DNA of 24,000 nt from assembly GCA_029688825.1 (NCBI GenBank), contig JARUKX010000013.1, positions 7,789 through 31,788 on the forward strand, given 5' to 3'. The notes beneath the pieces are model-generated. The model was given only the letters and a program-made list of their open reading frames with translations. It was not told the origin of the DNA and did not search any database. The DNA is from Haloarculaceae archaeon H-GB1-1 (GTDB lineage: Archaea; Halobacteriota; Halobacteria; Halobacteriales; Haloarculaceae). A program made the position numbers and the translations under genes. This document shows, piece by piece, positions 2,697 through 22,066 of this stretch (position 1 is its first letter; each line of letters starts with the position of its first letter).

Positions 2697-3968
2697 ATGA
2701 CGCTTGACCCCGTACACGTCGACGGGATCGCCAGACTCGCAGGCCGGGTGAGCGGCGGGGTCGACGAGACCGACCAGCAGCGCCTCGCCGAGACGGTCTG
2801 GGCTGACTTCCTCGACCCGCTGACCATCGACGGCGCGCCCGTCCTCGAATCGCTGGGCGAGCACAGGCGACGGCTCGCAAACGTCGAGTCGGTCGCCCTG
2901 CAGGACCCACCGTTTCCGAGCACTCACGGACTCGATTCGGGGACCATCAACCCGACGACGTTCAAGAACGGACTGGTCCTCGACGTTTCACAGGCGGCGA
3001 TGGCCGCCGTCCCGTCCGACCTCGACCTCCACCGGGCGCGGACGATCGTGATGACCGTCCACACCAACGACGACACCTTCACCGTCGCGCAGGACGACTG
3101 GACGATGACCGACGAGGGGTACGTCCGCGAGCGGGCGCTGCACGCACCGCGCGTGGACCGCTACGAGCAGAACGTCGTCCACGCGCTCGCTCTCTATCTC
3201 GCCGAGAGCAAGCACGCCCTCTCGCAGGTCGAGGTCGTCGACGACCTCCTCATCCTCGACGGACCGATCTACCCGACGGGGCTGCTGAAGTGGATCGAGC
3301 GCGATACCGAGCTTTCCGACCTGCTTCAGGAACGAGAAGAACCGGCCGACATCGTCGCGAACTACCTCGAACTCGTCGAGCGCTTCGTCGAGCGAGACGT
3401 CCCGCTCGTCGGGTTCGTGAAGAACAGCGCCTCGAAAGCCGTGACCCAGGCCGTCCGTCGAAACGCCGCCGCACCGAACGCACCGTGGGCCAACGACGCA
3501 GCCTTCTTCACCCGCGTCCTCGCCCGTCGCGACGACGACGGCGAGGCCCTGACCGACGCGCTCACCTTCACCAACTGGTTCGTCTCCCGCGTCGGGACCG
3601 ACCGCATCCTCGCAACGGACGACGAGACGCTCGACCTCGACCGCGAGTTCGCGCTCGCCCCCGAGGACTACGAGGTGACGTTCTTCGTAGTCTACGACCC
3701 TCGCGACGACCTCCTCTACCGTATCGAGGCCCCCTACGCGTTCACGAGGGACGAGGCGCTCCGTGAGCGATTGACCCGGCAGTTCCTCCTCGAAATCGCC
3801 GCCGAGCGCGGCCCCCCGCTGGCCGTCGCGAAGGCCGACGAACTCGCGCGTATCGACCGGCAAGGAAAGGAGCAACTCCGCCGGAAGATAGAGTCCGTCT
3901 TCGAGACCGACCGACACAAGGAGTACAACGACAAGCGCTGGGGGATGACGTTCGAGGGCGACCTGTAG
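2697..3968 (+). CDS. NurA-domain nuclease-like protein
   Basis: 423 aa. NurA-type motifs: HGLDSGTINP (Asp at aa 80), LLILDGPIYPTG, GFVKNSASK. TATA-like CATTTTTAC at 2666-2674, about 24-31 nt upstream of the ATG. Confidence 0.8.
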   Translation: MTLDPVHVDGIARLAGRVSGGVDETDQQRLAETVWADFLDPLTIDGAPVLESLGEHRRRLANVESVALQDPPFPSTHGLDSGTINPTTFKNGLVLDVSQAAMAAVPSDLDLHRARTIVMTVHTNDDTFTVAQDDWTMTDEGYVRERALHAPRVDRYEQNVVHALALYLAESKHALSQVEVVDDLLILDGPIYPTGLLKWIERDTELSDLLQEREEPADIVANYLELVERFVERDVPLVGFVKNSASKAVTQAVRRNAAAPNAPWANDAAFFTRVLARRDDDGEALTDALTFTNWFVSRVGTDRILATDDETLDLDREFALAPEDYEVTFFVVYDPRDDLLYRIEAPYAFTRDEALRERLTRQFLLEIAAERGPPLAVAKADELARIDRQGKEQLRRKIESVFETDRHKEYNDKRWGMTFEGDL

Positions 3969-4562: not shown

Positions 4563-6416
4563 ATGTCCGATCTGGGGGACTTCACAGACTTCGAACCCGA
4601 CGACGCCGATTCCGACGACGGTGCGGCGGAGCCGACCGACGACGCGACGTTCGTCGACGCATCGCAGTCGGATGCTGACGAGGCCACGGACGACTTCGAC
4701 CACCTCGGCGTCACGCCGACGGGGAGCGACCGCGGTATCGGCGTCCTCTCGGCGACGGACGGGCTGACCATCAGCGAGGACCCCGACGACACGACGCTCC
4801 GGGCGTACGTCACCGTCGCGAACCGCTCGGACGTCCGCATCGGGAAGTACCTCCTCGTCCCCTATCCGGGTCCGGGCGGCCGCAGCGCGGGCGAGCGGCT
4901 GTTCTGTCGCATCACGGCCCTGGAGTACGTCCAGGAGTTCCGCGCCGACGACGCCACGGAGATCCACGCCCGGCGGGCGATGCGGAGCGACGGCATCGAC
5001 GAGCAGGACTTCAAGTTCATGGCCACGCTGGAGCCGGTCGCCATCCTCTATCGGCAGGACGGCGAGTTGAAACGCCGGATGACCGACCGCGTCCCCAAGC
5101 CCGAGACGGCCGTCCGCGAGGCCGACGACACCGGCGAGATCAAGACCGGCCTGAAGATTCCGGAAGACGGCGTCTTCCTCGGCCATCTCGCGGTCGGCGG
5201 CGAGAAGGTCCGCACCTCCACCGAACCGCCGACCATCGACTACCGGCTGAAGGACGACTACGACGCCGGCGACCCGCTGGTGTTCCGACACACCCTCGTC
5301 GCGGGCGGGACGGGGTCCGGGAAGACCCACGGCGCGAAGAACGTCCTCCGGCAGTACCTCGCCGACGAGCGGACCTACCCCGTCGAGGAGGGGACCCGCG
5401 AGGCGTCGCCCTGCCTGGTGATGTTCGACCCGCAGGACGAGTACGCCCAACTCCACGACGACAATCCCGACCTCGACGACGAGTTCGCCCGGCGACTCGA
5501 ACGCGAGGGCGTCGCTCACGGCGGCTACGACGACACCATCGCCTTCGTCCCGAAGGTCGCGGGCGCGAACTACGCGGCCAGCAACCACCGCGCCGAGCAG
5601 GTGGAGTTCACCATCCCGTTCTCGATGGTCCAGGAGAACCCCTGGCTCATCGCCGGCTCCAGTCTCAACGGCAATCAGTACAACGCGCTGAAGTTCCTGC
5701 TCGACCGTTTCGAGGACGACTACGGCGAGAACGGGACCTACCAGCAGTTCAAGACCTTCCTCGACGATCCCGCGCTGCGGGAGGAACTCGACGAGACCGG
5801 TCGCGTCCACGAGGCCACGTTCAACGCGGTCAAGCGCCGCGCGTACGGCTTCGACGGCATCTTCGACCAGGACGCCCGCCCCATCACCGAACAGATCCAC
5901 GAGTTCGTCCGCGCGGGCGGCGTCTCCGTCGTCCCGACCTACCACATCAACAACTCCCGCTCGACGGTGACGGTCGTGCTCGCGCTGGCCGCCCTGCTCG
6001 TCGACGAGAAGCTCTCGAACAGCCCGCGCTACGAGCGCATCAAGAACACGCCGCTGATTCTGGGCCTCGACGAAGCGCACAACTTCCTCTCGTCGGTCGA
6101 CAGCGTCCAGGGCGAGCAGATCATCGGGAAGTTCACCGAGGCCGCCAAGCAGGGCCGCAAGGAACGGCTCGGCCTGTTCCTCATCACGCAGGACCCACAG
6201 GACATCGCCGAACCCGTCTTCAAGCAGATCAACACGACCGTCGTCCTGAATCTCGGCGACGACGACGCCATCTCCGCGGTGAACATCCCCTCGAAGCTGG
6301 AGGCGAAAGTGCCCTACATGGAGAAGGGCCAGATGGTCGTCTACTCGCCGGACAACTCCGAACCCGTCGAACTCGTCGGGCTCTCGAAGTGCGTGACGAA
6401 GCACGGGCGGGACTGA
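4563..6416 (+). CDS. HerA/DUF87-type P-loop ATPase (HerA-FtsK superfamily)
   Basis: 617 aa. Walker A GGTGSGKT (nt 5304-5327), Walker B LILGLDEAHNF (DEAH at nt 6069-6080) and LFLITQDPQDI (HerA-like ITQxP motif). A barrel-like region (IGKYLLVPYP...) precedes the ATPase, and the first ~50 aa form a highly acidic tail. Confidence 0.85.
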   Translation: MSDLGDFTDFEPDDADSDDGAAEPTDDATFVDASQSDADEATDDFDHLGVTPTGSDRGIGVLSATDGLTISEDPDDTTLRAYVTVANRSDVRIGKYLLVPYPGPGGRSAGERLFCRITALEYVQEFRADDATEIHARRAMRSDGIDEQDFKFMATLEPVAILYRQDGELKRRMTDRVPKPETAVREADDTGEIKTGLKIPEDGVFLGHLAVGGEKVRTSTEPPTIDYRLKDDYDAGDPLVFRHTLVAGGTGSGKTHGAKNVLRQYLADERTYPVEEGTREASPCLVMFDPQDEYAQLHDDNPDLDDEFARRLEREGVAHGGYDDTIAFVPKVAGANYAASNHRAEQVEFTIPFSMVQENPWLIAGSSLNGNQYNALKFLLDRFEDDYGENGTYQQFKTFLDDPALREELDETGRVHEATFNAVKRRAYGFDGIFDQDARPITEQIHEFVRAGGVSVVPTYHINNSRSTVTVVLALAALLVDEKLSNSPRYERIKNTPLILGLDEAHNFLSSVDSVQGEQIIGKFTEAAKQGRKERLGLFLITQDPQDIAEPVFKQINTTVVLNLGDDDAISAVNIPSKLEAKVPYMEKGQMVVYSPDNSEPVELVGLSKCVTKHGRD

Positions 6417-8996: not shown

Positions 8997-10103
8997 TCAC
9001 GAGCGGTCGGCGTCTTCCGGGGACGGGCGCTCTCCGAGCGTGACGGTCACGTTCTGCTGGTCACCGTCTCGGAGAACGGTGAGCGTCACCTCGTCGCCCG
9101 GACGGGTCTCCGTAAAGAGGTACGACGCCAGCGCTTCGTTCGATCCCACGGACTGGCCGTCGATGGCGACGATGAGGTCGCCGCCGACGGGGACTTGCTC
9201 GCCGTCCACGAGGACGGTCTCGGTCGTCCCCTGCAACGTACCGTTCGCCGGCGCGTCCGCGTACACCTCGTGAACGTAGACGCCGCCGGTCGCATCGAAG
9301 CCGTTCGCCTCGAGGAGTTGCGGGGTGGCGCGAGCGGTCCCGATGCCGAGGAAGGTGTGCTCGAACTCGCCGTCGTCGATGAGTTCCGGAACGACGGTCC
9401 GGACGGCCGACGCGGACACGGAGAAGCCGATGTTCTCGGCCTCAGAAGCCGTGATGCCAGCCGTGTTGACGCCGATCACCGTCCCGTCACAGGACAGGAG
9501 CGGGCCACCGCTGTTGCCCGGGTTGATGGGCGCGTCGGTCTGGACGACGTCCGGAATCGTGAACCCGAGCGTCGTCGGCATCGACCGGTTCGTCCCGCTG
9601 ACGATACCGTGCGTGATCGTCCCTTCGAGTCCGAACGGGTTGCCGACCGCGGCGACCTTCTCGCCGTGCTGTGGCGGTTCGTCCGCGACGGGAAGTGGGT
9701 CGACGTAGTCCGGTGTATCGTCGACCCGAACGACGGCGAGGTCGGAGAACGTGTCGTTACCCACGACGGTCCCCATTCGCGACTCTTCGCGGGCAAACTG
9801 GACCTGCACGTTCGAGGCCTCGCCGACTACGTGCGCGTTCGTGACGAAGAACGCGGACCCGTCGTCGGCGACGCGATAGGCGAAGCCCGACCCCAGACCG
9901 TCGCCAGTTCGGATGGCGACGACGGAGTCGATGGTCCGGTCGTAGAGCGACGCGTACCCACAGGCAGCGCCCGCGTCGACCTGGTTCGTCCGAGCGGCGT
10001 CCGAGGGGTCGGCCGGGAGCGATGCGCCGACGCCGGTCATCGCCACGCCAGTCGTCACGAGAAGGAGCGTTACGACGACTGCTGGAAATCTCGTGTCGTT
10101 CAC
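8997..10103 (-). CDS. HtrA/DegP-type (S1C) serine protease with C-terminal PDZ domain
   Basis: 368 aa with an N-terminal hydrophobic anchor. Catalytic triad contexts TNAHVV, DLAVVRV and GNSGGPLL. PDZ-like tail (GVYVHEV...GDLIVAIDGQSV). Confidence 0.9.
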   Translation of the reverse strand: MNDTRFPAVVVTLLLVTTGVAMTGVGASLPADPSDAARTNQVDAGAACGYASLYDRTIDSVVAIRTGDGLGSGFAYRVADDGSAFFVTNAHVVGEASNVQVQFAREESRMGTVVGNDTFSDLAVVRVDDTPDYVDPLPVADEPPQHGEKVAAVGNPFGLEGTITHGIVSGTNRSMPTTLGFTIPDVVQTDAPINPGNSGGPLLSCDGTVIGVNTAGITASEAENIGFSVSASAVRTVVPELIDDGEFEHTFLGIGTARATPQLLEANGFDATGGVYVHEVYADAPANGTLQGTTETVLVDGEQVPVGGDLIVAIDGQSVGSNEALASYLFTETRPGDEVTLTVLRDGDQQNVTVTLGERPSPEDADRS

Positions 10104-10725: not shown

Positions 10726-11253
10726 TCACGACGGCGGCGTCGGCGTCGTCGGGCACGCATCGGCCGTACAGGGTATCGACTTCACCCTGACGAAGTCGCC
10801 CTCCTGGACGAGCGTGATGCCGTAGTACCGGCCCTCGTAGTGGAGGTACGTGTGGGCGAAGGATTCGCCGTCGGTCTCCTCCCAGCGACGCTCGACGTGC
10901 GCGAACAGCGCCATCACGTCGCTGCGGTCGCCTCCCCGGGAACACTCCCGATAGGTCCCGTCGGCTGCGAGCGCGCGCTCGACGGCGCTCCTTGCGGCGG
11001 CGTCCAGGGTATCGTACGCAACGACGACCGTGTCGGCGTACTCTGTGACGTACGACGGGACCTCGAACAGCGTCAACGCGTCGACCGCCGACTGGGGGCC
11101 TCCCGTCTCGGTGGTGGCCGCACACGCATCGGTCTCGGCGTCACCGTCCGTGGAGTGGTCGGTGGTCCCGTTCCGCAGCGCGGCGTTCGAACAGCCGGCC
11201 AGAGAGAGCGACGCCACCGCAGCGGTCGTCGAGAGATACTGTCTCCGATGCAC
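10726..11253 (-). CDS. Tat-signal lipoprotein, unknown function
   Basis: MHRRQYLSTTAAVASLSLAGCS carries a twin-arginine motif plus an LAGC lipobox. The mature part has several Cys and a PTTPTPPS tail. Confidence 0.7.
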   Translation of the reverse strand: MHRRQYLSTTAAVASLSLAGCSNAALRNGTTDHSTDGDAETDACAATTETGGPQSAVDALTLFEVPSYVTEYADTVVVAYDTLDAAARSAVERALAADGTYRECSRGGDRSDVMALFAHVERRWEETDGESFAHTYLHYEGRYYGITLVQEGDFVRVKSIPCTADACPTTPTPPS

Positions 11254-11362
11254 GTCTCAGCCGTCGTCGAGACGACTGAAAGAGGTTGGCGACGATCAAG
11301 CGCGCGTTTCACACTCCATCTCGCCGACGTGCACGCACCAGGTGCTCGCGTCGACGCCCCGC

Positions 11363-11812
11363 TCAGTCGACGTGGCGAACGATGTGGACGTCGTAGCGCG
11401 GGTCTTCGGAGACCGGTGCGCCGACGCTCGTCACGGGCGTCGTGACGCGGCCGGCATTCTCGCTCCCGATGAACACGATTTCGGCATCGACCTCGTCGGC
11501 GACGTTCCGGATGGTCCGCACGACGTCCATCTCGATGGTCGCCTTCTCGCTGACGTCCTCCGTCGTCTCACAGCGGAAGGTCGCCGAGGGTGCGACCGCG
11601 TGGACCTCCTCGCGCAGTCGGTCACAGATGGCGTCGAGGTCGAACGGCTCGTCCTCGCCGAGCCAGCCCTGGTCGACCGCGAACCACGACTCGTCGTCCG
11701 GGACCACCGTCAGCGCGACCACGTCGGCGTCCATGAACGACGCGAACTCCGACGCGCGTTCGAGCGCCGCCTTCGAGAGGTCCGTACCGTCGTAGGGGAC
11801 TAACAGCGTCAT
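11363..11812 (-). CDS. Universal stress protein family protein
   Basis: 149 aa. USP-like start MTLLVPYDGTDLSKAAL and a later IVFIGSENAGRV segment. Confidence 0.75.
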   Translation of the reverse strand: MTLLVPYDGTDLSKAALERASEFASFMDADVVALTVVPDDESWFAVDQGWLGEDEPFDLDAICDRLREEVHAVAPSATFRCETTEDVSEKATIEMDVVRTIRNVADEVDAEIVFIGSENAGRVTTPVTSVGAPVSEDPRYDVHIVRHVD

Positions 11813-11877
11813 CGTCTGCCGGTGCGGTGCGGGTCCACAAGAAACTACGGACGGTGATGGACCGTCGGGGACGTGAC

Positions 11878-12672
11878 CTACCGGTCAGGATGTCCCGAAA
11901 GGGCCGCGGTTCGCTCGCGGACGAACGGGGCCACGGCGTCGGCGACCACGTCGGGTGCCGTCTGGGTCGCGACGTGACCGACGCCGTCGAGTTCGACGAG
12001 GCGACTGTCGGAAAGCCGCTCGTGCAGCGCGTCGACGGCGTCGCGGAGGTGTCTGGGACCGCGCTCGCCAGTGAGGAGGAGCGTGGGTACGTCCACGCCG
12101 GGGTCCGACGGAAGGCGGTAGTTCTCGACGGCCTCGTTCTCGCGAACGACCGTCTCGACGCGGTCGAGTCTCGCTTCCTCGGGCCACCACGGCAAGCGTT
12201 CGACGTCCGGGACGCCACCGCCCTCTTCGAGGAACAGCCGCATCGCGGCCTGTCGGTCACCGTCGTCGAGACGCTGCTGCATCCGGGCGGCGAGGTCGTC
12301 GCCGCGGTGCTCGCCGACCAGCATCGCCGGCTCGTAGAGGACGAGGCCAGCGAGCGACGCCTCCGTGGCCGTCGCGAACGCGACGAGGCCGCCGAAGGAG
12401 TGGCCGAACAGGACGGGGTCGCCGTCGACGGCGGCACAGAGGGCGGCGGCGTCTTCCACCTCCCGCTGGAGACTGTACTGCTCGCCATCGCCGCTGTCGC
12501 CCCGGCCGCGTCGGTCGGCAGCGACGAGCGTGCAGTCGCTGGCGAGGTGGGCCGCGAGCGGGTCCCAGTGGTGGCGGTCGCCCGACCCGCCGTGGAGGAG
12601 GACGACGGGCGGCCCCTCGCCGTGTCGTTCGTACGCGATCGTCGTTCCGTCCGCGGACGTGACTGTCTGCAT
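11878..12672 (-). CDS. Alpha/beta-fold hydrolase
   Basis: 264 aa. HGGSG oxyanion region (VVLLHGGSG), nucleophile elbow GHSFGG and a late His (GVGHVA). Confidence 0.85.
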   Translation of the reverse strand: MQTVTSADGTTIAYERHGEGPPVVLLHGGSGDRHHWDPLAAHLASDCTLVAADRRGRGDSGDGEQYSLQREVEDAAALCAAVDGDPVLFGHSFGGLVAFATATEASLAGLVLYEPAMLVGEHRGDDLAARMQQRLDDGDRQAAMRLFLEEGGGVPDVERLPWWPEEARLDRVETVVRENEAVENYRLPSDPGVDVPTLLLTGERGPRHLRDAVDALHERLSDSRLVELDGVGHVATQTAPDVVADAVAPFVRERTAALSGHPDR

Positions 12673-12780
12673 GGACGTCCCCGTAGGCCGAGAGGTGTGG
12701 AATGCGTGACTCTCAGCTGTTCGACCATTTATATCTCGACGGGTCCGTGCGCGACGTCCAGATCCGGGCAGCGTGACCGC

Positions 12781-14079
12781 TCACGCACGCTGTAGTTCGA
12801 CGACGAACACCACGCCACTGTCGTAGGCGTCGGGATCGATGCCGGTCGTCGGGTCCTGGTCGGCGCGGTCCTCGACCCACACCTCGCCGCCGTAGGTCGT
12901 GACCAGCCGATTCACCAGATAGAGTCCGATACCCGTCCCGTCGCTGTCGAGCGACTGCTCGCCCTTCCCGAAGATGACCTCCTTCTCCTCGTCGGGGACG
13001 CCGGGTCCGTTGTCGGCGACCCGAAGCTCGACGTGCTCGTCGACCGTTCTGGCCGCGACCTCGACCACGGGGTCGTCGCCGTCGTTGTGGTTGACGGCGT
13101 TGCTGAGGAGGTTCCTGACCACGGAACTCAGCATCTCGTTGGCGATGACCTCGACCGACGGGATCTCCGTCAGCCGTTCGAAGTCGGCCTCCGGGTAGGC
13201 CTCCGCCTGTCGCTCCAGTTCGAACGAGAGGAGGTCGTCGAACGCGATGGGCTCCAGCTGGGGTTCTTCGGAGCTGGCGAGCGTATCGATGAACTCTCGC
13301 GCGTCGTCGGTCACTCCGATGATGTGGTCGCTCGTCGTGATGATCTTCTCCGCGGCGCGGTCGTCGTCGGTTCGCTGGGCCACCACCTCGGCGAAGCCAC
13401 GGATGATCTGCATGCCGTTGCGGATGTCGTGGCGGACCACGCGGTTCAGGGCCTCCAGTTCGTCGTTGATGGTCTCCAGGCGCTGCTCGTAGGTCTTCAG
13501 TTCGGTGATGTCGATGACGCCACCGCGGAAACCAGCCGGTGCGCCGTCCTCGTACATGACCTGCGCGTTGTCCGAGACCCACCGAACCTCGCCGTCTCGG
13601 CGCCGGATGCGGTACTCGAAGTTCTCGATGGTCTCGCCGTCGCGAAGGGCCGTAACGTACTCCTCGTATCGGTCTGGGTCGACGAACACGTCGGTCTCCA
13701 CGTCCGAGACGGCCCGCTGGAGTGCCTCGGGCGTCTCGTAGCCCAGCACGTCCGCCATCGACTCGTTCGCGACGACGTAGCGGCGACCGTCCGGTGTCGT
13801 TCGGTAGATGCCCTCGACGGCGTGTTCGAACAGCGAGCGGTACTTCTCCTCGGCTTCCTGGAGTTCCAGCGTCAATGCGACCATCCCCTCGTTGGTCTCT
13901 TCGAGCTCCGTCGTCAGTCGGGAGAGGCGGTCGTCCTGCTCGTCGAGTCGGTCCGCTGCCTCCGCAAGCAGCGCTGCAACGTCGTCGTCGTGCGATTCTG
14001 CGGCTTCTCGCAGTCTCCCACGAAGGTCTTCCTCGGTCATTGGCCAGTGTCGATGCGCCGTCGATACGGCGTCATCCAC
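12781..14079 (-). CDS. PAS-domain sensor histidine kinase
   Basis: 432 aa. Helical N-terminus, one PAS/PAC domain (YRSLFEHAVEGIYRTTPDG...), H-box VVRHDIRNGMQII, N-box NLLSNAVNHN, G-boxes ADNGPGV and GTGIGL. The start could instead be the ATG at 14041 (MTEEDL). Confidence 0.85.
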   Translation of the reverse strand: MDDAVSTAHRHWPMTEEDLRGRLREAAESHDDDVAALLAEAADRLDEQDDRLSRLTTELEETNEGMVALTLELQEAEEKYRSLFEHAVEGIYRTTPDGRRYVVANESMADVLGYETPEALQRAVSDVETDVFVDPDRYEEYVTALRDGETIENFEYRIRRRDGEVRWVSDNAQVMYEDGAPAGFRGGVIDITELKTYEQRLETINDELEALNRVVRHDIRNGMQIIRGFAEVVAQRTDDDRAAEKIITTSDHIIGVTDDAREFIDTLASSEEPQLEPIAFDDLLSFELERQAEAYPEADFERLTEIPSVEVIANEMLSSVVRNLLSNAVNHNDGDDPVVEVAARTVDEHVELRVADNGPGVPDEEKEVIFGKGEQSLDSDGTGIGLYLVNRLVTTYGGEVWVEDRADQDPTTGIDPDAYDSGVVFVVELQRA

Positions 14080-14133
14080 AGTAAACGTCCCGGATACCCA
14101 TCAGGCCGCCAATCTGTCCGCTCACTCGCCCGT

Positions 14134-15168
14134 CTAATCGGTCGTGTCCTCGGAGACGACGAGCACGGTCGCGTCGTCGTGGTCCTTCCCCAGGTCGTTC
14201 AGCAGGCCGCGCGCGATCACCGTCGCCGGTTTGCCGTGCAAGCGCGAGTAGTCCTGCCACTCCCAGTGGGAGGTGGCACCGTCGGAGAACAGCGCCAGCC
14301 GATAGTCGGGTCGCCACTCGGTGCTTGTGACGGCAGGATCCGGCCCGTTCCCGCCGACGACGCCGCGTCGCGTGATGAGTCGGACGTCTCCGCCCCCGTC
14401 GATCTTGTAGTTGATGTTGCCGACGCTTCCGAAGGTGACCGTTTCCTCGTCCCAGTCGAAGCGAGCGAGGGCCATCACGACGCCCCGAGTCCCGCGACAG
14501 GCTCGCTCGGCTCCGCTGAAGATCGACTGGATCGAGTTGTCGTAGTGGCGCTCGACGTACCCCTTGGCCGCCATCGCGGCCTTGTGAGCACCCACGCCGT
14601 GGCCCAGTCCGTCGATGACGCCGACGAGCGCCTCGTCGTTCCAGCGTTTGAGGATGAAGCTGTCGCCGTTGGGCGTGCCCGGTGTCATCGGCCGGGACGC
14701 GGCACCGAACGAGAGGGGGCAGTCCAGCGTCGTCTCGTATGCCGGCCGGAGCCATCGATCGGCGACCACGTGCGTGCCGTACTTGGGTTCGCCCGGTGCG
14801 GCGACCGTGACCTCGTCCATGAGGCGATTGACCGCGCCGAGTCCGGCCCCGAGACTGCCCGCCGTCGATTCCCCGTCGGCGAACGCCTCGTCGACGTCGT
14901 CGATACCGGGGCCGGCGTCCAGCGATTCGATGCGGACGCCCGTCCGCTCACCCGTGCGTATGGTCGCGACGGAGACCTCGCCGCGGTCGGCGTGCGCCAG
15001 GACGTTCGCCGCGAGTTCCGCGGCGACGAGACCGATCTCGGTGGCGGCCGTCTCGTCGAACCCGACGTCGGCGGCCACGTCCTCCGCGGTCGACCGAACG
15101 AGGACGTCGTCGCCCTCCCGCTCGACGGGCCGGTTCGTCGTCTCGCGCACCTCGACATCGTCGCTCAT
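14134..15168 (-). CDS. Fusion protein: RsbT/RsbW-like GHKL ATPase domain plus PP2C (SpoIIE/RsbX-like) phosphatase domain
   Basis: 344 aa from the ATG at 15168-15166 (MSDDVEVRE...). N-terminal half: ELAANVLAHAD, DAGPGIDD, GLGAGLGAVNRLMDE. C-terminal half: GDSF, VIDGLGHG, LFSDG, DDATVLVV (PP2C acidic motifs). The start overlaps the upstream stop (TGATG). Confidence 0.8.
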   Translation of the reverse strand: MSDDVEVRETTNRPVEREGDDVLVRSTAEDVAADVGFDETAATEIGLVAAELAANVLAHADRGEVSVATIRTGERTGVRIESLDAGPGIDDVDEAFADGESTAGSLGAGLGAVNRLMDEVTVAAPGEPKYGTHVVADRWLRPAYETTLDCPLSFGAASRPMTPGTPNGDSFILKRWNDEALVGVIDGLGHGVGAHKAAMAAKGYVERHYDNSIQSIFSGAERACRGTRGVVMALARFDWDEETVTFGSVGNINYKIDGGGDVRLITRRGVVGGNGPDPAVTSTEWRPDYRLALFSDGATSHWEWQDYSRLHGKPATVIARGLLNDLGKDHDDATVLVVSEDTTD

Positions 15169-15614
15169 CAGCGCCACTTCCGGATGAGAATCGTCGTCCC
15201 TTTCTCGGCGCTGGAGGTCAGTTCGAAGTCGTCCATGAGCTTCTTCGTCCCCTGGATACCGCGCCCCATACCGTTCGAGGTGGAGTGGTCCGCCCGGAGC
15301 ACGCCGTCGACGTCGTCGATTCCCGGGCCGTCGTCCTCGAAGACGAGTTCGATTCCGACGCGGGGTCCGTCCTCGATCTCGCGCCACTTCATCACTCCCT
15401 CGTCCGCGTAGAGGAAGACGTTCCGCGCCAGTTCCGAAACGGCTGTCACGGTCCGCGTGACGTCGGTGATGGAGAGGCCGATGTCCTCGGCTATCGAGCG
15501 CGCCTGCTGGCGGGCACGGAGGATGTCGTCCTCCGAGTCGATCCACACCTCGCCCGACCGTGCCGTCGTCGTCGGTGAGCGTCGCCGCTCGTCCGATTCC
15601 TGCCGCTCATCCAT
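15168..15614 (-). CDS. RsbT-like anti-sigma-type serine/threonine kinase (HATPase_c_2 type)
   Basis: 148 aa. SELARNVFLYA (N-box), DDGPGIDD (G1), GMGRGIQGTKKLMDDF (G2). The ATG overlaps the upstream STAS gene by 8 nt. Confidence 0.85.
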   Translation of the reverse strand: MDERQESDERRRSPTTTARSGEVWIDSEDDILRARQQARSIAEDIGLSITDVTRTVTAVSELARNVFLYADEGVMKWREIEDGPRVGIELVFEDDGPGIDDVDGVLRADHSTSNGMGRGIQGTKKLMDDFELTSSAEKGTTILIRKWR

Positions 15615-15993
15615 CGCGTTCCGCCTCGCTGGTGGTCGAGATTCCGAGCAACGTCAGCGCGTGGTCGGTGTTGCGCGCGGTCTCGATGTCGCCCAGCCCG
15701 AAGCCGAGTTCGGCGGCGGTGATGGCGACTGCGGGACGCATCCCGACCACGACCGCCCGTCCACCCATGAGCGCGACCATGTTCGCCGTCTCGGAGATGA
15801 CCCGCGCGAAGAACGAGTCCAGCGTCGTCACCGCGGAGATGTCCAGCACGACGCCGCGCGGGTTCACGTCCTCCATCTCGTTCAGGACCGCCTGCTGAAG
15901 TTGGTCGACGGCTTGATCGGTCGGTCGCGACGGGAAGTTGGCGATCAGCACGTCGAAGACCTGCGTCACCGAGCCATCCTCTGCCGTGGTCAC
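15607..15993 (-). CDS. RsbS-like single STAS-domain protein
   Basis: 128 aa from the GTG at 15993-15991, which overlaps the TGA of the upstream gene as GTGA. STAS core VVLDISAVTTLDSFFARV with Ser60 (nt 15814-15816), then VVVGMRPAVAITAAELG. No in-frame ATG gives a full domain. Confidence 0.75.
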   Translation of the reverse strand: MTTAEDGSVTQVFDVLIANFPSRPTDQAVDQLQQAVLNEMEDVNPRGVVLDISAVTTLDSFFARVISETANMVALMGGRAVVVGMRPAVAITAAELGFGLGDIETARNTDHALTLLGISTTSEAERDG

Positions 15994-16757
15994 TCGAACT
16001 TCACCCCCTGCCAGGTGAGCGCGACACGGAGCCCCTCCATCAGCGAGGACTGCGTCTCGACGTCTTCGAGCTTGACGCCGAGCTGGACGAGCGTCTGCGC
16101 GATGTCCGGGCTGATGCCGGTGATGACGACGTTCGCGCCCAGGAGGTTCACCGCGTTGATGGTGTCGATGAGGTGCTGTGCCGTCGCGGTGTCGAGCGCC
16201 GCGACGCCGGTGATGTCGATGAGCGCGACGGCCGCTTCGGCCTCGACGATGCGGTCGAGCAGGTCCTCGGTGAGCCGTTCGGCCTTCTGGGTGTCCAGCG
16301 ACCCGACGACCGTCGTGAGGATGACGCCGTCCCAGATCTCGACGACCGGCATCGAGAGGTTCCGGACCTCCTGTGCGAGGCTCCGCAGTCGGCGCTCGTT
16401 CTCGCGCCGGTCGGTGATGTCCCGACCGATGCCCGCGATGGCCTCGACATCGCCGTCGGAGGTCAGCGGCGATACCGAGAACTCGTAGGGTACCTCGGTC
16501 CCGCCGCGGGTCTCCAGGTTCGCCTGAACCGTCGTACGAGTTCCCCTCTCCTGCACCTCCTCGATGGTCTCCCCGATGACCTCGCGCTCGTCGCCGGAGA
16601 ACAGGTCCTTCGGCGACATCTCCCCGATCTCGTCGTCGTTGTAGCCCGTGACCGCGGGCAATTGTTCGTTCCACTCCAGGAAGTCGCCATCCGCCGAGAA
16701 GATGTAGAAGACATCTTCAAGCTCGTCGATGCCGGTCGCGAGTAGCTCGTCGTCCAT
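15990..16757 (-). CDS. RsbR-like PAS + STAS sensor protein
   Basis: 255 aa. N-terminal PAS (no LOV-type Cys motif seen). C-terminal STAS with GSLDT(156)QKAERL and ITGVAALDT(190)ATAQHL, then VVITGISPDIAQTLVQLG. TATAAAA at 16783-16789 (TTTTATA in minus sense) lies 26-32 nt upstream of the ATG. Confidence 0.85.
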   Translation of the reverse strand: MDDELLATGIDELEDVFYIFSADGDFLEWNEQLPAVTGYNDDEIGEMSPKDLFSGDEREVIGETIEEVQERGTRTTVQANLETRGGTEVPYEFSVSPLTSDGDVEAIAGIGRDITDRRENERRLRSLAQEVRNLSMPVVEIWDGVILTTVVGSLDTQKAERLTEDLLDRIVEAEAAVALIDITGVAALDTATAQHLIDTINAVNLLGANVVITGISPDIAQTLVQLGVKLEDVETQSSLMEGLRVALTWQGVKFE

Positions 16758-16782
16758 GGGGTCGAAGAAGGACTACGAGCCT

Positions 16783-16789
16783 ATAAAAC
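16783..16789 (-). promoter_or_regulatory. TATA box candidate for the RsbR-like operon (leaderless spacing)
   Basis: TTTTATA (minus sense) 26-32 nt upstream of the ATG at 16757, in a locally AT-rich 135-nt divergent intergenic region. Confidence 0.45.
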
Positions 16790-16892: not shown

Positions 16893-17756
16893 ATGGGCTA
16901 CGAATACACCGGCGACGCACATCGCCGACTCGTCGCGTCCTACGCGGCCGACGAGGACCCTTTCAAAGAGCACGCGGGGGCGAACTTTCCGCCCCGGGAC
17001 CACATGCGCAAGGAGGTCGCCGTCCTGAAGCGACTGCTCTTTCCCACCTGCTGGAACGCCGAGGACCTGCTCGATAACGAGGAGCGGACGCTCGCGAAGC
17101 TGAACAAGCTCGGGCGGCTCTACTGTGCCGGCATCGACCCCTACGCGGAGGGCAACTCGAAGGAGATCGTCGACAGCGTCATCGACGACCTCCCGGACAT
17201 CCGCGACGCGCTACAGAAGGACGTCGAGGCGGCCTACAAGGGCGACCCTGCCGCCAAGAGCTACACGGAGATCATCCGGTCGTACCCCGGCTTTCACGCC
17301 ATCATGGTCCAGCGAGTCGCCCACGCCATCTACGAGGCCGGTGCCTCCGAGTACGCTCGCGAGTTGACGGAGTACGCCAAGACCGAGACGGGCATCGACA
17401 TCCACCCCGGCGCGGACATCGGCGAGTACTTCTTCATCGACCACGGGACCGGCGTCGTCATCGGCGAGAGTGCGACCGTCGGCGACTGGGCGCGGATCTA
17501 CCAGAACGTGACGCTCGGCGCGCTGCACTTCGAGGCGGAAGAGGACGAGGAGCACATGCTGAAGAAGGGGTACAAGCGCCACCCCGACATCGGCGACCAC
17601 GTCGTCATCGGCGCGGGCACCAACATCATGGGGCCCATCTCCATCGGCGACCACGTCAGCATCGGCGCGAACTCCTGGATCACAGACGACATCCCGGACA
17701 ACACGACGGTGTACATCTCCGACCACCCCGAGCAGGAGCGCAAGCAGAACGACTAG
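16893..17756 (+). CDS. cysE: Serine O-acetyltransferase (long form with acidic loop insertion)
   Basis: 287 aa. GIDIHPGADIGEYFFIDHGTGVVIGESATVG signature and hexapeptide repeats (HVVIGAGTNIMGPISIGDHVSIGANS). Confidence 0.9.
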   Translation: MGYEYTGDAHRRLVASYAADEDPFKEHAGANFPPRDHMRKEVAVLKRLLFPTCWNAEDLLDNEERTLAKLNKLGRLYCAGIDPYAEGNSKEIVDSVIDDLPDIRDALQKDVEAAYKGDPAAKSYTEIIRSYPGFHAIMVQRVAHAIYEAGASEYARELTEYAKTETGIDIHPGADIGEYFFIDHGTGVVIGESATVGDWARIYQNVTLGALHFEAEEDEEHMLKKGYKRHPDIGDHVVIGAGTNIMGPISIGDHVSIGANSWITDDIPDNTTVYISDHPEQERKQND

Positions 17757-17763
17757 CCAGCGG

Positions 17764-18696
17764 TCACTCCGAGAGCTCCGCCGCTGCGAGGTCGCGAACG
17801 GCCTGGGAGACGGCGACGAGCTTCCCGCTGGGGAGGTCCCTGCCGGGTTCCAGCGGTCGTCGGTTCACGACGAACACGTCCGTGTACTTGTCGTAGAGGA
17901 TGGAGTTCAGCGCCCGCAGGATGCGCTCGTCCAGCCAGAACCCCTCGGCCACGAACCCATCGGCCACGACCTCTAGCAGCGCCTGCTCGACGTCGTTCTC
18001 GTCCGTCTCCGTCGCCAGCAGTCGCTCGTAGGCCTCCACCTCCGCCGCCGCCGTCTGATAGAGCGGGTCGGATTCGTCCAGCGTCTCCGTCCGGGCCTCC
18101 CACTGCTCGATCTCCTGTTCGTACACGTGCGTGCCCTCCAGGCTCGGTGCCGTCTCGGGACTTTCGAGATATCGTTCGGCCAGTCTGATGACCCGGTTCT
18201 TGAAAGCGTCGATCGAGGCGAGTAGCGACGCGTACTCCTCGCTCTCGGCCAGTTCGGCGTCGGTCTTCTCGGCTTCGAGCGCGGTCACCTTCGCGGCGTT
18301 TGCGAAGTACTCTCGCGTGTCCGGGCCGGCCGCGTCGACGCCGAGCAACCGTTCGACGACGGCCCGGAGATCGTCCTTCTCCACCGGTTTCGTGACGTAG
18401 TCGTCGAACCCCATCTCGACGATGTCGAAGTCCGGGTCGACGGCCGACACCATGGCGACGCGCGCGTCCGAGCCGTCCGACCGGATTCGGTCGAGGAACT
18501 CGTCGCCCGAGAGGCCGGGGAGTCGTCGGTCGAGGAGGACGACCGCCACGGTGTCGTCCATGGCTTCGAGTGCTTCCTCGCCGGAGTACGCCGTTCGGAC
18601 CTCGTAATCGTCGGAGAGCCAGAGCGTGAAGAGATCGGCCAGCTCTCGCTGGTCTTCGACGACCAGCACGACCGGCGGAGAGCCACTGGTTGTCAT
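17764..18696 (-). CDS. Response regulator: receiver + HalX-type helical domain + uncharacterised C-terminal domain
   Basis: 310 aa. REC motifs VLVVEDQ, VVLLDRRLPGLSG and a conserved Lys in YVTKP. A coiled, acidic middle segment follows, then a C-terminal ~95 aa with no motif I recognise. Confidence 0.85.
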   Translation of the reverse strand: MTTSGSPPVVLVVEDQRELADLFTLWLSDDYEVRTAYSGEEALEAMDDTVAVVLLDRRLPGLSGDEFLDRIRSDGSDARVAMVSAVDPDFDIVEMGFDDYVTKPVEKDDLRAVVERLLGVDAAGPDTREYFANAAKVTALEAEKTDAELAESEEYASLLASIDAFKNRVIRLAERYLESPETAPSLEGTHVYEQEIEQWEARTETLDESDPLYQTAAAEVEAYERLLATETDENDVEQALLEVVADGFVAEGFWLDERILRALNSILYDKYTDVFVVNRRPLEPGRDLPSGKLVAVSQAVRDLAAAELSE

Positions 18697-18766: not shown

Positions 18767-21700
18767 TCACGAGTGCCTGTCCACGAACGTCATCGTCACC
18801 ACGCTTCCCCGGGGGTCGTTCGACCCGAAGGAGAGCGTCCCGTTCGACCGGCTGACGATCCACGTGGCGAGCCAGAGACCGAGGCCGCTGCCGTGGTAGA
18901 GCGGTTCGATGGGGCGGTCGCCGAGGACGACCTCCCGTTCGATCTCGGGGATGCCGGGCCCGTCGTCGCGAACGGCGACTTCGACCGCGTCCGGGTCGGC
19001 GGTCAGTTCGACGCTGATGGTCGGCGTCTCCCGGTCGGAGTGCTCGACGGCGTTCTCGACGAGTTCCGTCAGTGCCTCGTCGATAGTGTGGGACACGACC
19101 GCGGTCGCGCCGGCGGGTGCGTCGATCTCGATGATGGCGTGTGGATGGCGCTTCCGAGCCCGTTCGACGACGTCGTGAGCGGCCTCTGACAGGTCGATTC
19201 GCTCCCGCATCGGCTCCGAGGAGAGGAGCTCTGTGATGGCCTTCTCTTTGTCCGTGACGTCGAGGAGATGGTCGCACTGAGCGATGACCCGGTCGGCGTA
19301 CGCCGAGAACGGGTCCGGTGCTTCTTCACTGACTGTCTCTGCGTACCCGCGGATGACGTTCATGTCGTTGTGGAAGTTGTGTCGTAACACGGTGTCGAGG
19401 ACGCGCAACTGCTGGATGCGCTCCTCGCGAGCCGTGACGTCGATCGAGACGCCGATCATCGTCCGCCCGCCGTCCTCGTCGTCCGTTCGAACGGTCCCGC
19501 GCCCGTCGATCCAGCGCTCGACGCCGTCGGCCCGAACGATGCGGTAGGTCATCGCGAACGGGCGTCCCTCCTCGAGGGTGGTCTGGATAGCGGCCTGTAC
19601 CTCCGCTCGGTCGTCGGGGTGGACGTACCCCATGAAGGCGTCGACCGTCCCCTCGAACGCGCCACGTTCGAGTCCGAACAGGCGCTCGCACGTGCTGTCC
19701 CAGTGGACGTCTTTCTCGCCGACGGTCCACTCCCAGATGCCCGCATCAGCCGCTTCGAGCGCGAACGTCCGACTCGCGTGGGTCTCCTGGAGCGCTCGTT
19801 CGTACTGGACGCGTTGGGTGACGTCGCGGATGCTGTACAGTCTCGAGCCGTTCTGGATGGCGACGGACGTGACGGTCACGAGGACGGTGTGGTCCGTTCC
19901 GTCGGCGTCGGTCACGACGAGTTCGACGTTCTCGACGACGTCCCCGTGACCGAACTCGTCGGGGGCCGGGTCACTCCCGAGGATCTCCGCGACGGAATCC
20001 ATCGCCTCGACCTCCGCAGCCGAGTACTCGAAGATGTAGTGGACGTTCGGACAGACGTAGGTGAACCGTCCGTCGTCGTCCGTGATGAACACCGTGTCGG
20101 TGATGTTGTTCAGCGTGGTTCGGTGAAGCTCCTCAGATTGCTCGAGTTCTCGCTGAAGCCGTTTCTGCTCGGAGATGTCCGCCATCGACGCCACGGCGAA
20201 CTCGACGTCGCCCTCCGTCGAGCGCGTCGGTGCGACGTTGACCGACAGCCATACCGTCTCGCCGTCGGGACCTTCGACGCCGAGTTCGGAGCCGAAGACG
20301 GCCTCGCCGGTACGCATCGCGACCGAGAACGGGAGGTCCTCGCTCGGAATGGGCGTGCCGTCCTCGTCGACGATGTTCCAGTCCGTCTCGTCGTAGGCTC
20401 GACCCGCGATCTCCGACCGTGGGAGGCCGAGCAGCTCTTCGGCACGCTTGTTCGCCTGGACGATGGTCCCGTCGGTGTCGAGGACGGTCTTCGCGACGGG
20501 GCTGGTGTCGAACAGGTGCTGGACGAACTGATGTTCCGTCGACAGCGCGCGCTCGATCTGCTTGCGACCGCTCACGTCCCGGGCCGTGACGACCATGCCC
20601 TCGATGGCCGGGTGGTCGACGTACCCTCGGCTTGCGGCTTCGAGCCACCGCCAGTCGCCGTCGGCGTGTCGGAACCGATAGGTGACGCGAGTGGTCTCTT
20701 CGAGCCCCGTCAGCGCCTCGTCGAGGGCGTCGACGAGCTCCCCCTGGTCGTCCGAATGGACGTAGTCGAGGACGTCCTCGCCCACCATGTCGGCCGGTTC
20801 GTACCCCAGCATCTCCGTCACGGCCGACCCCAGGTAGGCGAATCGGCCATCGCCGTCGATGACCGTCACCAGATCGCTGACGTTCTCCAGAAACGCCTCG
20901 CGTCGTTCGAGTTCGCGTTCGCGGCGCTTCCGGTCCGTCACGTCCTGCACGGCCCCGCGAAGCGCGACGATCGCACCGTCGCGTTCGATGGCGTCACCAC
21001 GCGCTCTGACCCACCGCTCGTCGCCGGTGGCCGTCTCGAACCGGAGTTCGACGTCGAAGGCCTCCCCGAAGTCCCGGCAGCGCTCGACCGCACGGCGCAT
21101 CGTCTCGCGGTCGTCGGGGTGGTAGAACCCGATGGCATCGTCGAGCGTCGGATCGGAGTCGTCGTCGACCTCGTGAAGACGGCGCGCGCCCGTCGACCAC
21201 CACACAGAGTCCGTCTCCGCGTCGAGCACCCAGCCACCGATGTCGGCCAACTCCTCCATGTCGTCCAGGAGGAACTGCAAGCGCTCGCTCTCGCGTTCTC
21301 GTTCCCGCTGCTCGGTGGCGTCTCGGCAGATGAGTATCGTCGCCGGGTCGCCATCCCAGTCGATTCGCGCGGCCGTCACCTCGACGGGCGCGGATTCCTC
21401 ACCCGCTCGCGTCATCGAGGTTTCGACGCGGTCCAGCGTCCGTGATCCCGACTGGATGCTCGCGAGCAGGTCGGACGTGACCCCGGCCTGGAACGAGTCC
21501 GCGGCCACGGTACCGTCCAGGGCTGTCCGGTCCTCCGCGCCGAGGAGGGTCACGGCAGCCGCGTTGAGGTGGACGAAGCGACCGTCTCTGACGATGGCGA
21601 CCGCGTCCGGAACGGCGTCGAGCAGCGTCCGGGCGCGGGCCTCGGTCTCGACGAGGCCGGACCGGGTGCGGGCGTACGCGACGGCGCTGACGACGAGCGA

Positions 21701-22066
21701 GCTGAGCCGCACCCACTCGTCGTCGGCGCGCTGCTTGACGAGGTAGTCCGTCACACCGGCCGAGATGGCACGGCTCGCGATCTCCTCGGAGCCCTCGCTG
21801 GTGAACAGGATGAACGGGAGCGTCGGCGATTGGGCCCTGATCGCCTGGAGGAAGGCGAGACCGTCGGTGTCCGGCAGGTCGTGGTCGCTCACGATACAAT
21901 CCACGTCGTCCGTCGCGAGCGTCGATAGCGCGTCACCGACGGTGCTGGTCGTCGTGACGCCGATGCCGGCGTCGGCAGCGAGTTCCTCGGAGACGATGCT
22001 CGTGTACTCCTGATCGTTACTGACCACGAGCAGATGTATCGGGTCGTCCGTCGGAACCGAACCCAT
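18767..22066 (-). CDS. Hybrid sensor histidine kinase: N-terminal receiver, about six PAS/PAC domains, HisKA/HATPase core
   Basis: 1099 aa. REC (LLVVSND..., CIVSDHDLPDTDG, YLVKQ). Six PAS-like blocks, each ending in an (R/K)-rich linker (DATEQRER, DVTDRKRRE, DVSGRKQIE, DISEQKRLQ, DVTQRVQYE, DVTAREERI). H-box LRHNFHNDMN, N-box ELVENAVEHS, DDGPGIP, GSGLGLWL. Confidence 0.9.
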   Translation of the reverse strand: MGSVPTDDPIHLLVVSNDQEYTSIVSEELAADAGIGVTTTSTVGDALSTLATDDVDCIVSDHDLPDTDGLAFLQAIRAQSPTLPFILFTSEGSEEIASRAISAGVTDYLVKQRADDEWVRLSSLVVSAVAYARTRSGLVETEARARTLLDAVPDAVAIVRDGRFVHLNAAAVTLLGAEDRTALDGTVAADSFQAGVTSDLLASIQSGSRTLDRVETSMTRAGEESAPVEVTAARIDWDGDPATILICRDATEQRERERESERLQFLLDDMEELADIGGWVLDAETDSVWWSTGARRLHEVDDDSDPTLDDAIGFYHPDDRETMRRAVERCRDFGEAFDVELRFETATGDERWVRARGDAIERDGAIVALRGAVQDVTDRKRRERELERREAFLENVSDLVTVIDGDGRFAYLGSAVTEMLGYEPADMVGEDVLDYVHSDDQGELVDALDEALTGLEETTRVTYRFRHADGDWRWLEAASRGYVDHPAIEGMVVTARDVSGRKQIERALSTEHQFVQHLFDTSPVAKTVLDTDGTIVQANKRAEELLGLPRSEIAGRAYDETDWNIVDEDGTPIPSEDLPFSVAMRTGEAVFGSELGVEGPDGETVWLSVNVAPTRSTEGDVEFAVASMADISEQKRLQRELEQSEELHRTTLNNITDTVFITDDDGRFTYVCPNVHYIFEYSAAEVEAMDSVAEILGSDPAPDEFGHGDVVENVELVVTDADGTDHTVLVTVTSVAIQNGSRLYSIRDVTQRVQYERALQETHASRTFALEAADAGIWEWTVGEKDVHWDSTCERLFGLERGAFEGTVDAFMGYVHPDDRAEVQAAIQTTLEEGRPFAMTYRIVRADGVERWIDGRGTVRTDDEDGGRTMIGVSIDVTAREERIQQLRVLDTVLRHNFHNDMNVIRGYAETVSEEAPDPFSAYADRVIAQCDHLLDVTDKEKAITELLSSEPMRERIDLSEAAHDVVERARKRHPHAIIEIDAPAGATAVVSHTIDEALTELVENAVEHSDRETPTISVELTADPDAVEVAVRDDGPGIPEIEREVVLGDRPIEPLYHGSGLGLWLATWIVSRSNGTLSFGSNDPRGSVVTMTFVDRHS

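Follow-up and report, generated by a model that had tools for sequence, protein, structure and literature searches.

What does a bacterial type of stress-signalling hub do in an archaeon? The question is raised by a 24,000-nucleotide (nt) stretch of DNA from Haloarculaceae archaeon H-GB1-1 (contig JARUKX010000013.1, positions 7,789 to 31,788), referred to here as the window. Five consecutive genes, which we call R, S, T, X and D, lie on its minus strand. They encode, in this order, an RsbR-like PAS-STAS protein, an RsbS-like single STAS protein, an RsbT-like small GHKL Ser/Thr kinase, a T-like kinase fused to a PP2C phosphatase, and a PAS histidine kinase. Modules with rsbRSTX occur in diverse bacteria "and even some archaeal species", and the outputs of stressosomes include two-component systems and cyclic di-GMP (c-di-GMP) enzymes (PMC9237108, PMC10014275, PMC8942246). 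These papers agree with a sequence-only reading of the window, according to which archaeal modules had been listed in surveys and none had been characterised. Our analyses make it probable that the five genes are a horizontally acquired bacterial-type stressosome cassette, kept functional in this haloarchaeon, with T signalling to D.

The cassette and its signalling residues

The sequence-only reading had recognised four genes in stressosome order, and Pfam, Protein Data Bank (PDB) comparisons and synteny agree with it. In Pfam, R matched PAS_4 (1.6e-14) and STAS (5.2e-14), S matched STAS (9.9e-10), T matched HATPase_c_2 (3.7e-10), and X matched HATPase_c_2 (3.5e-13) and SpoIIE (9.5e-8). The nearest PDB sequences of the R STAS domain were stressosome RsbR proteins (Vibrio vulnificus 7o0i, 4.7e-23; 6qcm, ~7e-23), and the linker helix and STAS of R align with V. 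vulnificus RsbR from residue 121 to 248. S was nearest to RsbS (6jhk, 9e-18; 6qcm, 7e-16) and to Moorella MtS (2vy9, 1e-14). Coordinates are collected in Table 1.

The phospho-acceptor residues are in place. Thr156 and Thr190 of R, 34 residues apart, align without gaps and at an offset of 19 with residues 175 and 209 of the 278-residue RsbR (7b0u/9o4r); Thr175 and Thr209 are the RsbR1 sites according to PMC8942246. Ser60 of S, in the sequence TLDSFF, aligns with the acceptor serine of RsbS (IDSF). The same column reads IDAF in RsbS chain 9o4r_a, which is otherwise identical in the aligned region. In all eight sets of aligned orthologues the acceptor Ser of S is invariant, column 156 of R is Thr or Ser and column 190 is Thr. 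The three acceptor positions named from the sequence alone were thus upheld, as was the B. subtilis numbering with which they had been compared (S59, T171 and T205; PMC7522486). R was also tried as a LOV/YtvA photoreceptor. It scored 99.6 bits against the YtvA_fam model, where the cut-off is 250, and it has no GxNCRFLQ/NCRFL-type flavin Cys motif; the matching stretch is SPKDLFSGDE, and R is entirely free of Cys. Its PAS is not a LOV domain, and light sensing is therefore unsupported.

The N, G1 and G2 motifs of T are invariant in orthologues, and its position after S is constant in all loci with sufficient upstream sequence. X is more unusual. The fusion to a second ATPase domain had been noticed before; our comparison refines this, in that the ATPase part is a full paralogue of T. 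The first ~140 residues of X share 35% identity with T (E 6e-21) and have intact ATP-binding motifs. The nearest PDB sequences of the phosphatase domain were Moorella MtX (3zt9, 2.7e-11) and B. subtilis RsbX (3w40, 4e-10). In the AlphaFold model of X (pLDDT 87.9), the PP2C domain superposes in Foldseek on MtX 3zt9 (TM-score 0.90, root-mean-square deviation (rmsd) 1.9 A) and on RsbX 3w40 (TM-score 0.83), and the N-terminal domain superposes on SpoIIAB 1l0o (TM-score 0.72). There are 66 invariant columns among 15 homologues of X, and all four PP2C motifs (Table 1) are invariant in orthologues. Fused X is widespread: of the candidates scored, 2628 proteins had E<=1e-5, and almost all of the top 120 measure 313-390 amino acids (aa). 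A locus on plasmid pHSR-CO of Halanaeroarchaeum sp. HSR-CO (NZ_CP087725, L095 4411-10139) has R-S-T-X', where X' is a single-domain PP2C of 214 aa.

From R to X the genes overlap. The GTG start of S sits within the stop of R (GTGA), S and T overlap by ATGGATGA, and T and X by TGATG. These start/stop overlaps indicate one unit of transcription and translation. D follows on the same strand after a gap of 54 nt (14080-14133), as had been reported, although orthologue alignment suggests that its true start may be the ATG at 14040 (Met14), which would make the gap 93 nt. By eye, a TATA-box-like element, TTTTATAG, was seen upstream of R, ~25-30 nt from its start codon; as a candidate archaeal promoter it would fit a leaderless or short-leader haloarchaeal transcript. 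The G+C content of the window is 61-70%, and the cassette matches its surroundings without a compositional break.

Six-frame translation of the window revealed no other open reading frame (ORF) for a STAS protein or T-like kinase (phmmer, E<1e-4) and no second copy of X at a strict cut-off of E<1e-20. The earlier statement that the window holds no RsbV, RsbW or RsbU stands in so far as there is no further STAS or T-like ORF and no RsbU_N domain in D. It needs amending for X, which holds a second kinase domain of the RsbT/RsbW type.

The candidate output kinase and its N-terminal motif

D matched PAS_3 (7e-12) and HATPase_c (2.4e-21). Its HisKA score of 25.3 bits is slightly under the cut-off of 26.9, the H-box RHDIRN with His217 is present, and many NCBIfam kinase models align to residues ~200-408. 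In front of these domains, D shares a conserved segment, LSRLTTELEETNEGMVALTLELQEAEE, with the D proteins of the first eight loci compared. Glu58, Leu59, Thr62 and Asn63 are its nearly invariant columns. The signature is ELxETNxGLxALTLELE, or in a longer form (I/L)RxLQxELxETNxGLxALTLELE, within an N-terminal coiled coil of ~45-60 residues.

The motif is tied to the cassette. A 24-residue hidden Markov model (HMM) built from the eight loci was run against the six-frame translation of 90 loci at a threshold of >=12 bits. It gave 105 matches, of which 103 were on the strand of X and no more than 600 nt past the X stop. A refined HMM gave 113, with 111 on the same strand and between 60 nt before and 600 nt past that stop. 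Among the 78 loci whose downstream sequence was long enough, all of them chosen via X alone, it found the motif in 75. Four bacterial loci have degenerate motifs that the narrow first seed model had missed. The other two matches are internal to a second, very large kinase further down the Halorubrum sp. BV1 cluster (L006, ~13350) and the Halorubrum-like cluster L026, ~2.3 kb past the X stop.

The association was also examined in the opposite direction. A motif profile seeded with 14 short motif-bearing gene fragments was searched against 1.84 billion representative proteins; 500 of them matched at E<=1e-3, and 156 of these reached E<=1e-10. The motif occupies residues ~1-60 in almost all of the 150 top matches. 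Among 84 longer motif proteins, 75 have HisKA, 73 HATPase_c, about half PAS, 12 GAF, 11 REC, two HD and one GGDEF. Three proteins were then picked by the motif alone, and all three stand after the cassette or the end of an X gene: a GAF-GGDEF-HD protein and a PAS-GAF kinase each directly follow R-S-T-X, and the third, on a short contig, overlaps the C-terminal end of an X-type PP2C gene. Together with the locus specificity, this makes the association of motif and cassette two-way.

Within the core EL-x-x-TN, Glu is conserved at 100%, Leu at 97%, Thr at 97% and Asn at 91%. The hydrophobic a/d heptad (L-L-T-L-L-L) reads as a coiled coil, with the polar Thr-Asn pair in or beside its core. The motif matched no Pfam family, RsbU_N included, and its profile matched no PDB chain at a meaningful E-value. 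A likeness of the D N-terminus to the first helix of B. subtilis RsbU found no support and was dropped. Most proteins downstream of stressosome modules are without an RsbU_N domain (Heinz et al., PMC9237108). We tentatively propose, with confidence slightly short of even, that the motif is a portable and so far undescribed receiver of stressosome output, a functional analogue of RsbU_N that would be recognised by RsbT-type kinases. If this is true, one R-S-T-X sensor could be plugged into histidine kinases, c-di-GMP enzymes and, directly, haloarchaeal Bat-type HTH_10 regulators, which would provide a sigma-independent path from a bacterial stress hub to gene expression in an organism with TBP/TFB transcription.

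Several variants of the motif region were seen. Two tandem copies are frequent in bacterial D proteins, and haloarchaeal D proteins have a single one. The tandem copies (L008 11044-12138; also, for example, L034-L040, L051-L054 and L064) are ~32-33 residues apart and differ systematically, copy 1 reading ETN[RE]GL.AL and copy 2 RTNSELLQL; after each copy comes a signalling-helix sequence of the ERT type. On the Halanaeroarchaeum plasmid, the protein after X' is 1181 aa long and carries the motif internally (aa 191-223), behind an N-terminal GAF domain. In P0266 (191 aa), a motif-bearing N-terminus comes straight after the C-terminal part of a T-like kinase and X is missing; this may be a cassette without X or a gene-calling artefact. 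An apparent X-D fusion protein, P0165, proved to be a frame-shifted gene call and no true fusion.

Distribution of the cassette and linked archaeal regulators

Synteny was assessed from protein look-ups in genomes and from one metagenome scan, which supplied 80 loci chosen via X alone; a genome scan with X only gave just two weak bacterial loci. The order R-S-T-X is identical, with near-constant spacing, in every locus with enough upstream sequence (88 scored). In Halorientalis brevis, Halonotius roseus, Halovenus marina and Halorubrum sp. BV1, and also on a plasmid of Halobaculum halophilum, X is followed by a sensor kinase gene on the same strand. The genes flanking the cassette differ among the Halorientalis, Halonotius, Halovenus and Halorubrum genomes. 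The same five-gene arrangement was found in one Blastocatellia genome and one other bacterium, where further receiver and kinase genes follow. As to whether the kinase always follows, it is syntenic in haloarchaea and in these two bacterial genome loci, but a Bat-type HTH_10 protein replaces it in some haloarchaea.

The nearest homologues of X are haloarchaeal, from Halorientalis brevis (70%), Halonotius, Halovenus, Halorubrum, Halopenitus and Natronosalvus. No protein more than 75% identical to X was found in a collection of 5.8 billion sequences. The window S, T and X share 46-51% identity with bacterial proteins, about the same as with the most distant haloarchaeal copies. In a neighbour-joining tree of X (without support values), the acidic haloarchaeal proteins form one group apart from bacterial X, and Natronosalvus branches at the root beside that group. 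This topology is indicative of an old transfer from bacteria to Halobacteria, followed by spread within Halobacteria. Two copies of the cassette are on haloarchaeal plasmids (Halobaculum and Halanaeroarchaeum). Haloarchaeal and bacterial orthologues share, without exception, the N, G1 and G2 boxes of the two kinase domains and the Asp motifs of PP2C. That acceptor and catalytic residues are conserved argues that the genes are under selection and are not relics.

D had been described as the only nearby candidate output. This no longer holds, as a REC-HalX response regulator encoded upstream of the cassette is also a candidate. It shares 44% identity (E 1e-46) with a regulator on the Halobaculum halophilum plasmid (NZ_CP058531, L094 4356-8754), where the genes overlap in the order R-S-T-X, motif-bearing histidine kinase, REC-HalX. 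A second response regulator lies just downstream on the opposite strand of that plasmid. Similar REC-HalX genes are near the module in two Halorubrum-like loci (L006 and L026). We treat the link between REC-HalX and the system as a lead.

A different archaeal regulator follows X in Natronosalvus halobius (CP099997, L007 11017-13374). The gene overlapping the X stop encodes a GAF-GAF-GAF-BAT-HTH_10 protein with the motif at residues ~16-49. Just four of 120 Bat-like relatives have the motif: those of two Natronosalvus species, one from Saliphagus, and one 44%-identical protein on an unrelated contig (L093 4696-7152), which likewise stands after R-S-T-X. Many other Bat-like relatives bear a REC domain in Pfam, and REC domains on Bat-type relatives have been reported (PMC5847659). 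The motif in place of the REC domain of relatives suggests that it acts as an input module. The module type is already known; in the accessible open-access literature, outside which the main 2005 and 2017 reviews lie, we could not find a description of the kinase-fused X, the output motif, the Bat-type variant or the recurrent REC-HalX neighbour.

The remaining genes of the window are of several kinds. Upstream of the cassette, on the same strand as the cassette and REC-HalX, lies a gene for a hybrid kinase, and a divergent serine-acetyltransferase-like gene stands between the cassette and the REC-HalX and hybrid kinase genes. Downstream of D are genes for an alpha/beta hydrolase, with its own ATATAAAT element ~50 nt upstream, a universal stress protein and an HtrA-like trypsin-PDZ protease; Halorientalis brevis (L003) likewise has a trypsin-PDZ protease ~8 kb downstream of its cassette. 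Elsewhere in the window, genes for a NurA nuclease and a HerA-like (DUF87) helicase form a pair typical of archaeal DNA end resection. Long opposite-strand ORFs overlap both genes in this high-GC window and have no Pfam match. Between 22034 and 24000 both strands carry several overlapping ORFs (300-390 aa), two of which were tested and had no Pfam match, and in the final kilobase the G+C content falls to 61%. Rfam and tRNA scans of the window gave no matches.

Table 1. Positions of the cassette genes, their domains and key residues, and other genes of the window.
Feature	Position (nt)	Strand	Protein length or residues	Remarks
R	15990-16757	minus	255 aa	RsbR-like, PAS-STAS
R PAS sensor	16401-16727	minus	aa 11-119	Pfam
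R C-terminal STAS	16071-16349	minus	aa 137-229	Pfam
R Thr156 codon	16290-16292	minus	Thr156	
R Thr190 codon	16188-16190	minus	Thr190	
S	15607-15993	minus	128 aa	RsbS-like, single STAS
S Ser60 codon	15814-15816	minus	Ser60	TLDSFF
T	15168-15614	minus	148 aa	RsbT-like small GHKL Ser/Thr kinase
T motifs			aa 61; aa 94; aa 115	N-box ELARN; G1 DDGPG; G2 GMGRG
X	14134-15168	minus	344 aa	T-like GHKL kinase and PP2C fusion
X N-terminal T-like GHKL kinase domain	14797-15099	minus	aa 24-124	ELAAN, DAGPG, GAGLG
X RsbX/MtX-type PP2C domain	14155-14679	minus	aa 164-338	GDSF, DGLGHG, SDG, DDAT
D	12781-14079	minus	432 aa	PAS histidine kinase, candidate output
D domains			PAS aa 78-195; HisKA aa 210-263; HATPase_c aa 316-408	N-terminal helical region in front; His217 in HisKA
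D N-terminal motif LSRLTTELEETNEGMVALTLELQEAEE	13846-13926	minus	aa 52-78	Common to D of first eight loci
TATA-box-like element TTTTATAG	16782-16789	minus		Candidate promoter
REC-HalX response regulator	17764-18696	minus		Pfam; candidate cognate regulator of D
Hybrid kinase	18767-22066	minus	1099 aa	REC-PAS(x5)-HisKA-HATPase
Serine-acetyltransferase-like gene	16893-17756	plus		
Alpha/beta hydrolase	11878-12672	minus		
Universal stress protein	11363-11812	minus		
HtrA-like trypsin-PDZ protease	8997-10103	minus		
HerA-like (DUF87) helicase	4563-6416	plus		
NurA nuclease	2697-3968	plus		

Proposed signal flow, alternatives and known systems

We infer every proposed interaction from the Bacillus, Listeria, Moorella and Vibrio systems; this applies to how the complex assembles, which protein phosphorylates which, whether T binds the motif, what the X kinase domain does and which regulator takes part. 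R, with its PAS sensor and STAS domain, and S would build a scaffold that sequesters T. On a signal at the PAS domain of R, T would phosphorylate Ser60 of S and Thr156 and Thr190 of R and then leave the scaffold. Free T would act on the N-terminal coiled coil of D, ELEETNEGMVALTLEL, a helix that would take the role of the N-domain of Bacillus RsbU. Most likely T would bind this helix, which runs on into the PAS and DHp domains, and shift its register, altering kinase or phosphatase activity, and D would then relay the signal to a response regulator, plausibly the REC-HalX protein. X would reset the system, its PP2C domain dephosphorylating S~P and R~P and its T-like domain docking X on the STAS surface used by T. 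The genetic arrangement has a precedent in Vibrio, where rsbRSTX adjoins a two-component system and the two are regulated together (PMC9237108).

Several observations weigh against this scheme. In V. vulnificus, Heinz et al. were unable to demonstrate that RsbT interacts with the downstream kinase (PMC9237108), and in the accessible literature we found no study of any archaeal member and none of partner switching in haloarchaea. Profile and alignment searches placed the STAS, HATPase_c_2 and SpoIIE families as anticipated, but no RsbT-specific model or solved RsbT chain matched T in NCBIfam and PDB searches. T is assigned as RsbT by domain and gene position only; among solved structures SpoIIAB is its best relative (E 5e-3), and in NCBIfam only the SpoIIAB and RsbA models appeared, each below its cut-off. 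The N-termini of D from the window, Natronosalvus and Blastocatellia gave no RsbU_N (PF08673) match at E up to 10, so the interaction of T with D is without sequence precedent. The gap of 54-93 nt before D leaves room for a separate promoter. REC-HalX is near the module in just ~4 of 16 distinct haloarchaeal loci. Halonotius-type loci (L004, Halonotius roseus 11214-13124; L011) keep R-S-T-X with a PAS-PAS kinase that has no motif, and three related metagenome contigs (L016, L020, L022) have no same-strand gene of any kind after X, and thus no D.

Other explanations were weighed against the same data. We consider it unlikely that the motif is a phospho-switch, in which T or the X kinase domain phosphorylates Thr62 of D and the PP2C domain removes the phosphate, X acting on the output besides or instead of S and R. 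The conservation of Thr (97%) and the next Asn (91%) at a putative coiled-coil core would be odd for a purely structural residue, X has kinase and phosphatase in one chain and its gene always adjoins D, and RsbT-dependent phosphorylation of downstream kinases has been proposed (PMC9237108). The Moorella RsbT homologue phosphorylates a downstream diguanylate cyclase, as cited in PMC4976288. However, the substrates known for this kinase family are folded STAS domains whose acceptor is preceded by Asp (DS/DT); in the motif, the preceding residue varies among Glu, Lys and Arg. The heptad would also put Thr in the helix core, poorly reachable by a kinase, and the nearest relatives of the phosphatase, RsbX and MtX, act on STAS proteins. 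It is quite improbable that the genes encode a small partner-switching module like SpoIIAA/SpoIIAB or RsbV/RsbW, each kinase controlling one STAS protein and no pseudo-icosahedral particle of 1.5-1.8 MDa being formed. The STAS domains of R and S match stressosome RsbR and RsbS (E 1e-23 and 1e-18) far better than SpoIIAA (2.6e-3), and the alignment of R with V. vulnificus RsbR from residue 121 takes in the linker helix as well as the STAS domain. Two STAS proteins with two paralogous kinases do suggest one-to-one pairing, T resembles SpoIIAB as much as any other solved structure, and assembly is not readable from sequence; yet the Halanaeroarchaeum plasmid variant, with its single-domain X, works with one kinase only.

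That same plasmid bears on which kinase would partner the motif. Its motif persists next to a 214-aa PP2C that has no kinase domain, and for this reason we favour T over the kinase domain of X. We think it very improbable that the X domain is the partner, with X as switch and output adaptor and T phosphorylating the scaffold only. In favour of that view, the genes of X and D are directly adjacent, often with a 4-nt overlap, the loci used for motif discovery were all selected through fused X, and the frequent tandem motif copies of bacterial D could serve two kinases. On the other side, haloarchaeal D has one motif copy, yet both kinases are kept, and P0266, if it is not a gene-calling artefact, joins the C-terminus of T to a motif ORF without X. 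Hardly credible is the view that the kinase merely happens to lie next to a module with which it has no connection, and that this module is a decaying, functionless relic of transfer. It could appeal to the gap of 54-93 nt before D, to the lack of sigma factors in archaea and to the bacterial type of the cassette (46-51% identity to bacterial S, T and X). Against it, catalytic and acceptor residues are intact and conserved across the haloarchaeal clade, the synteny of D holds across genera with differing flanks, and the linkage of motif and X is near-completely specific. The G+C content also matches the surroundings, and the protein is acidic like other haloarchaeal copies (ratio of D+E to K+R, 1.8).

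The functional cassette with T signalling to D would have consequences beyond this locus. The motif offers a concrete surface for how stressosomes signal without RsbU and sigma B, and a simple sequence rule for spotting stressosome outputs in genomes. The haloarchaeal copies would be a clear example of a signalling module crossing domains of life, a bacterial Ser/Thr partner-switching hub that was acquired, stayed intact and was rewired to REC-HalX and Bat/HTH_10 regulators.

Among known systems, the resemblance to bacterial RsbRST variants that feed a two-component system, already pointed out from the sequence, is borne out by Vibrio. V. vulnificus (VvD1/VvD2; PMC9237108, PMC10014275) has the same R-S-T-X order with a same-strand sensor kinase directly downstream, lacks sigma B, RsbU, RsbV and RsbW as well, and provides the closest solved relative of the window R STAS domain (7o0i). 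It differs in its haem globin sensor, where the window R has PAS, in its bacterial host, and in an RsbX described as a single-domain PP2C (PMC9237108), whereas the window X has an extra T-like kinase domain. The ELxETN motif at the N-terminus of the window D may be a further difference from VvD1. B. subtilis and Listeria monocytogenes share the STAS scaffold proteins, the GHKL switch kinase and the compact feedback PP2C, and their S59/S56, T171/T175 and T205/T209 correspond to Ser60, Thr156 and Thr190. Unlike them, the window has no RsbU, RsbU_N, RsbV/RsbW pair or sigma factor; its R sensor is PAS and not a non-haem globin, and its X comes directly after T and is fused to a kinase.

Moorella supplies the closest structural match of the X phosphatase (MtX) as well as a match of S (MtS), and its output is likewise not a sigma factor; one motif-bearing relative is similarly a GGDEF-HD protein after R-S-T-X. 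The window differs in that its output is a histidine kinase, and MtX (3zt9, 192-193 residues) is without a kinase domain. On the archaeal side, the cassette meets the Bat/HTH_10 and REC-HalX regulators of haloarchaea: a BAT-HTH_10 protein follows X in Natronosalvus, and REC-HalX follows the kinase on the Halobaculum plasmid. The cassette-linked Bat proteins carry a bacterial-type motif at the N-terminus, where many of their relatives have REC.

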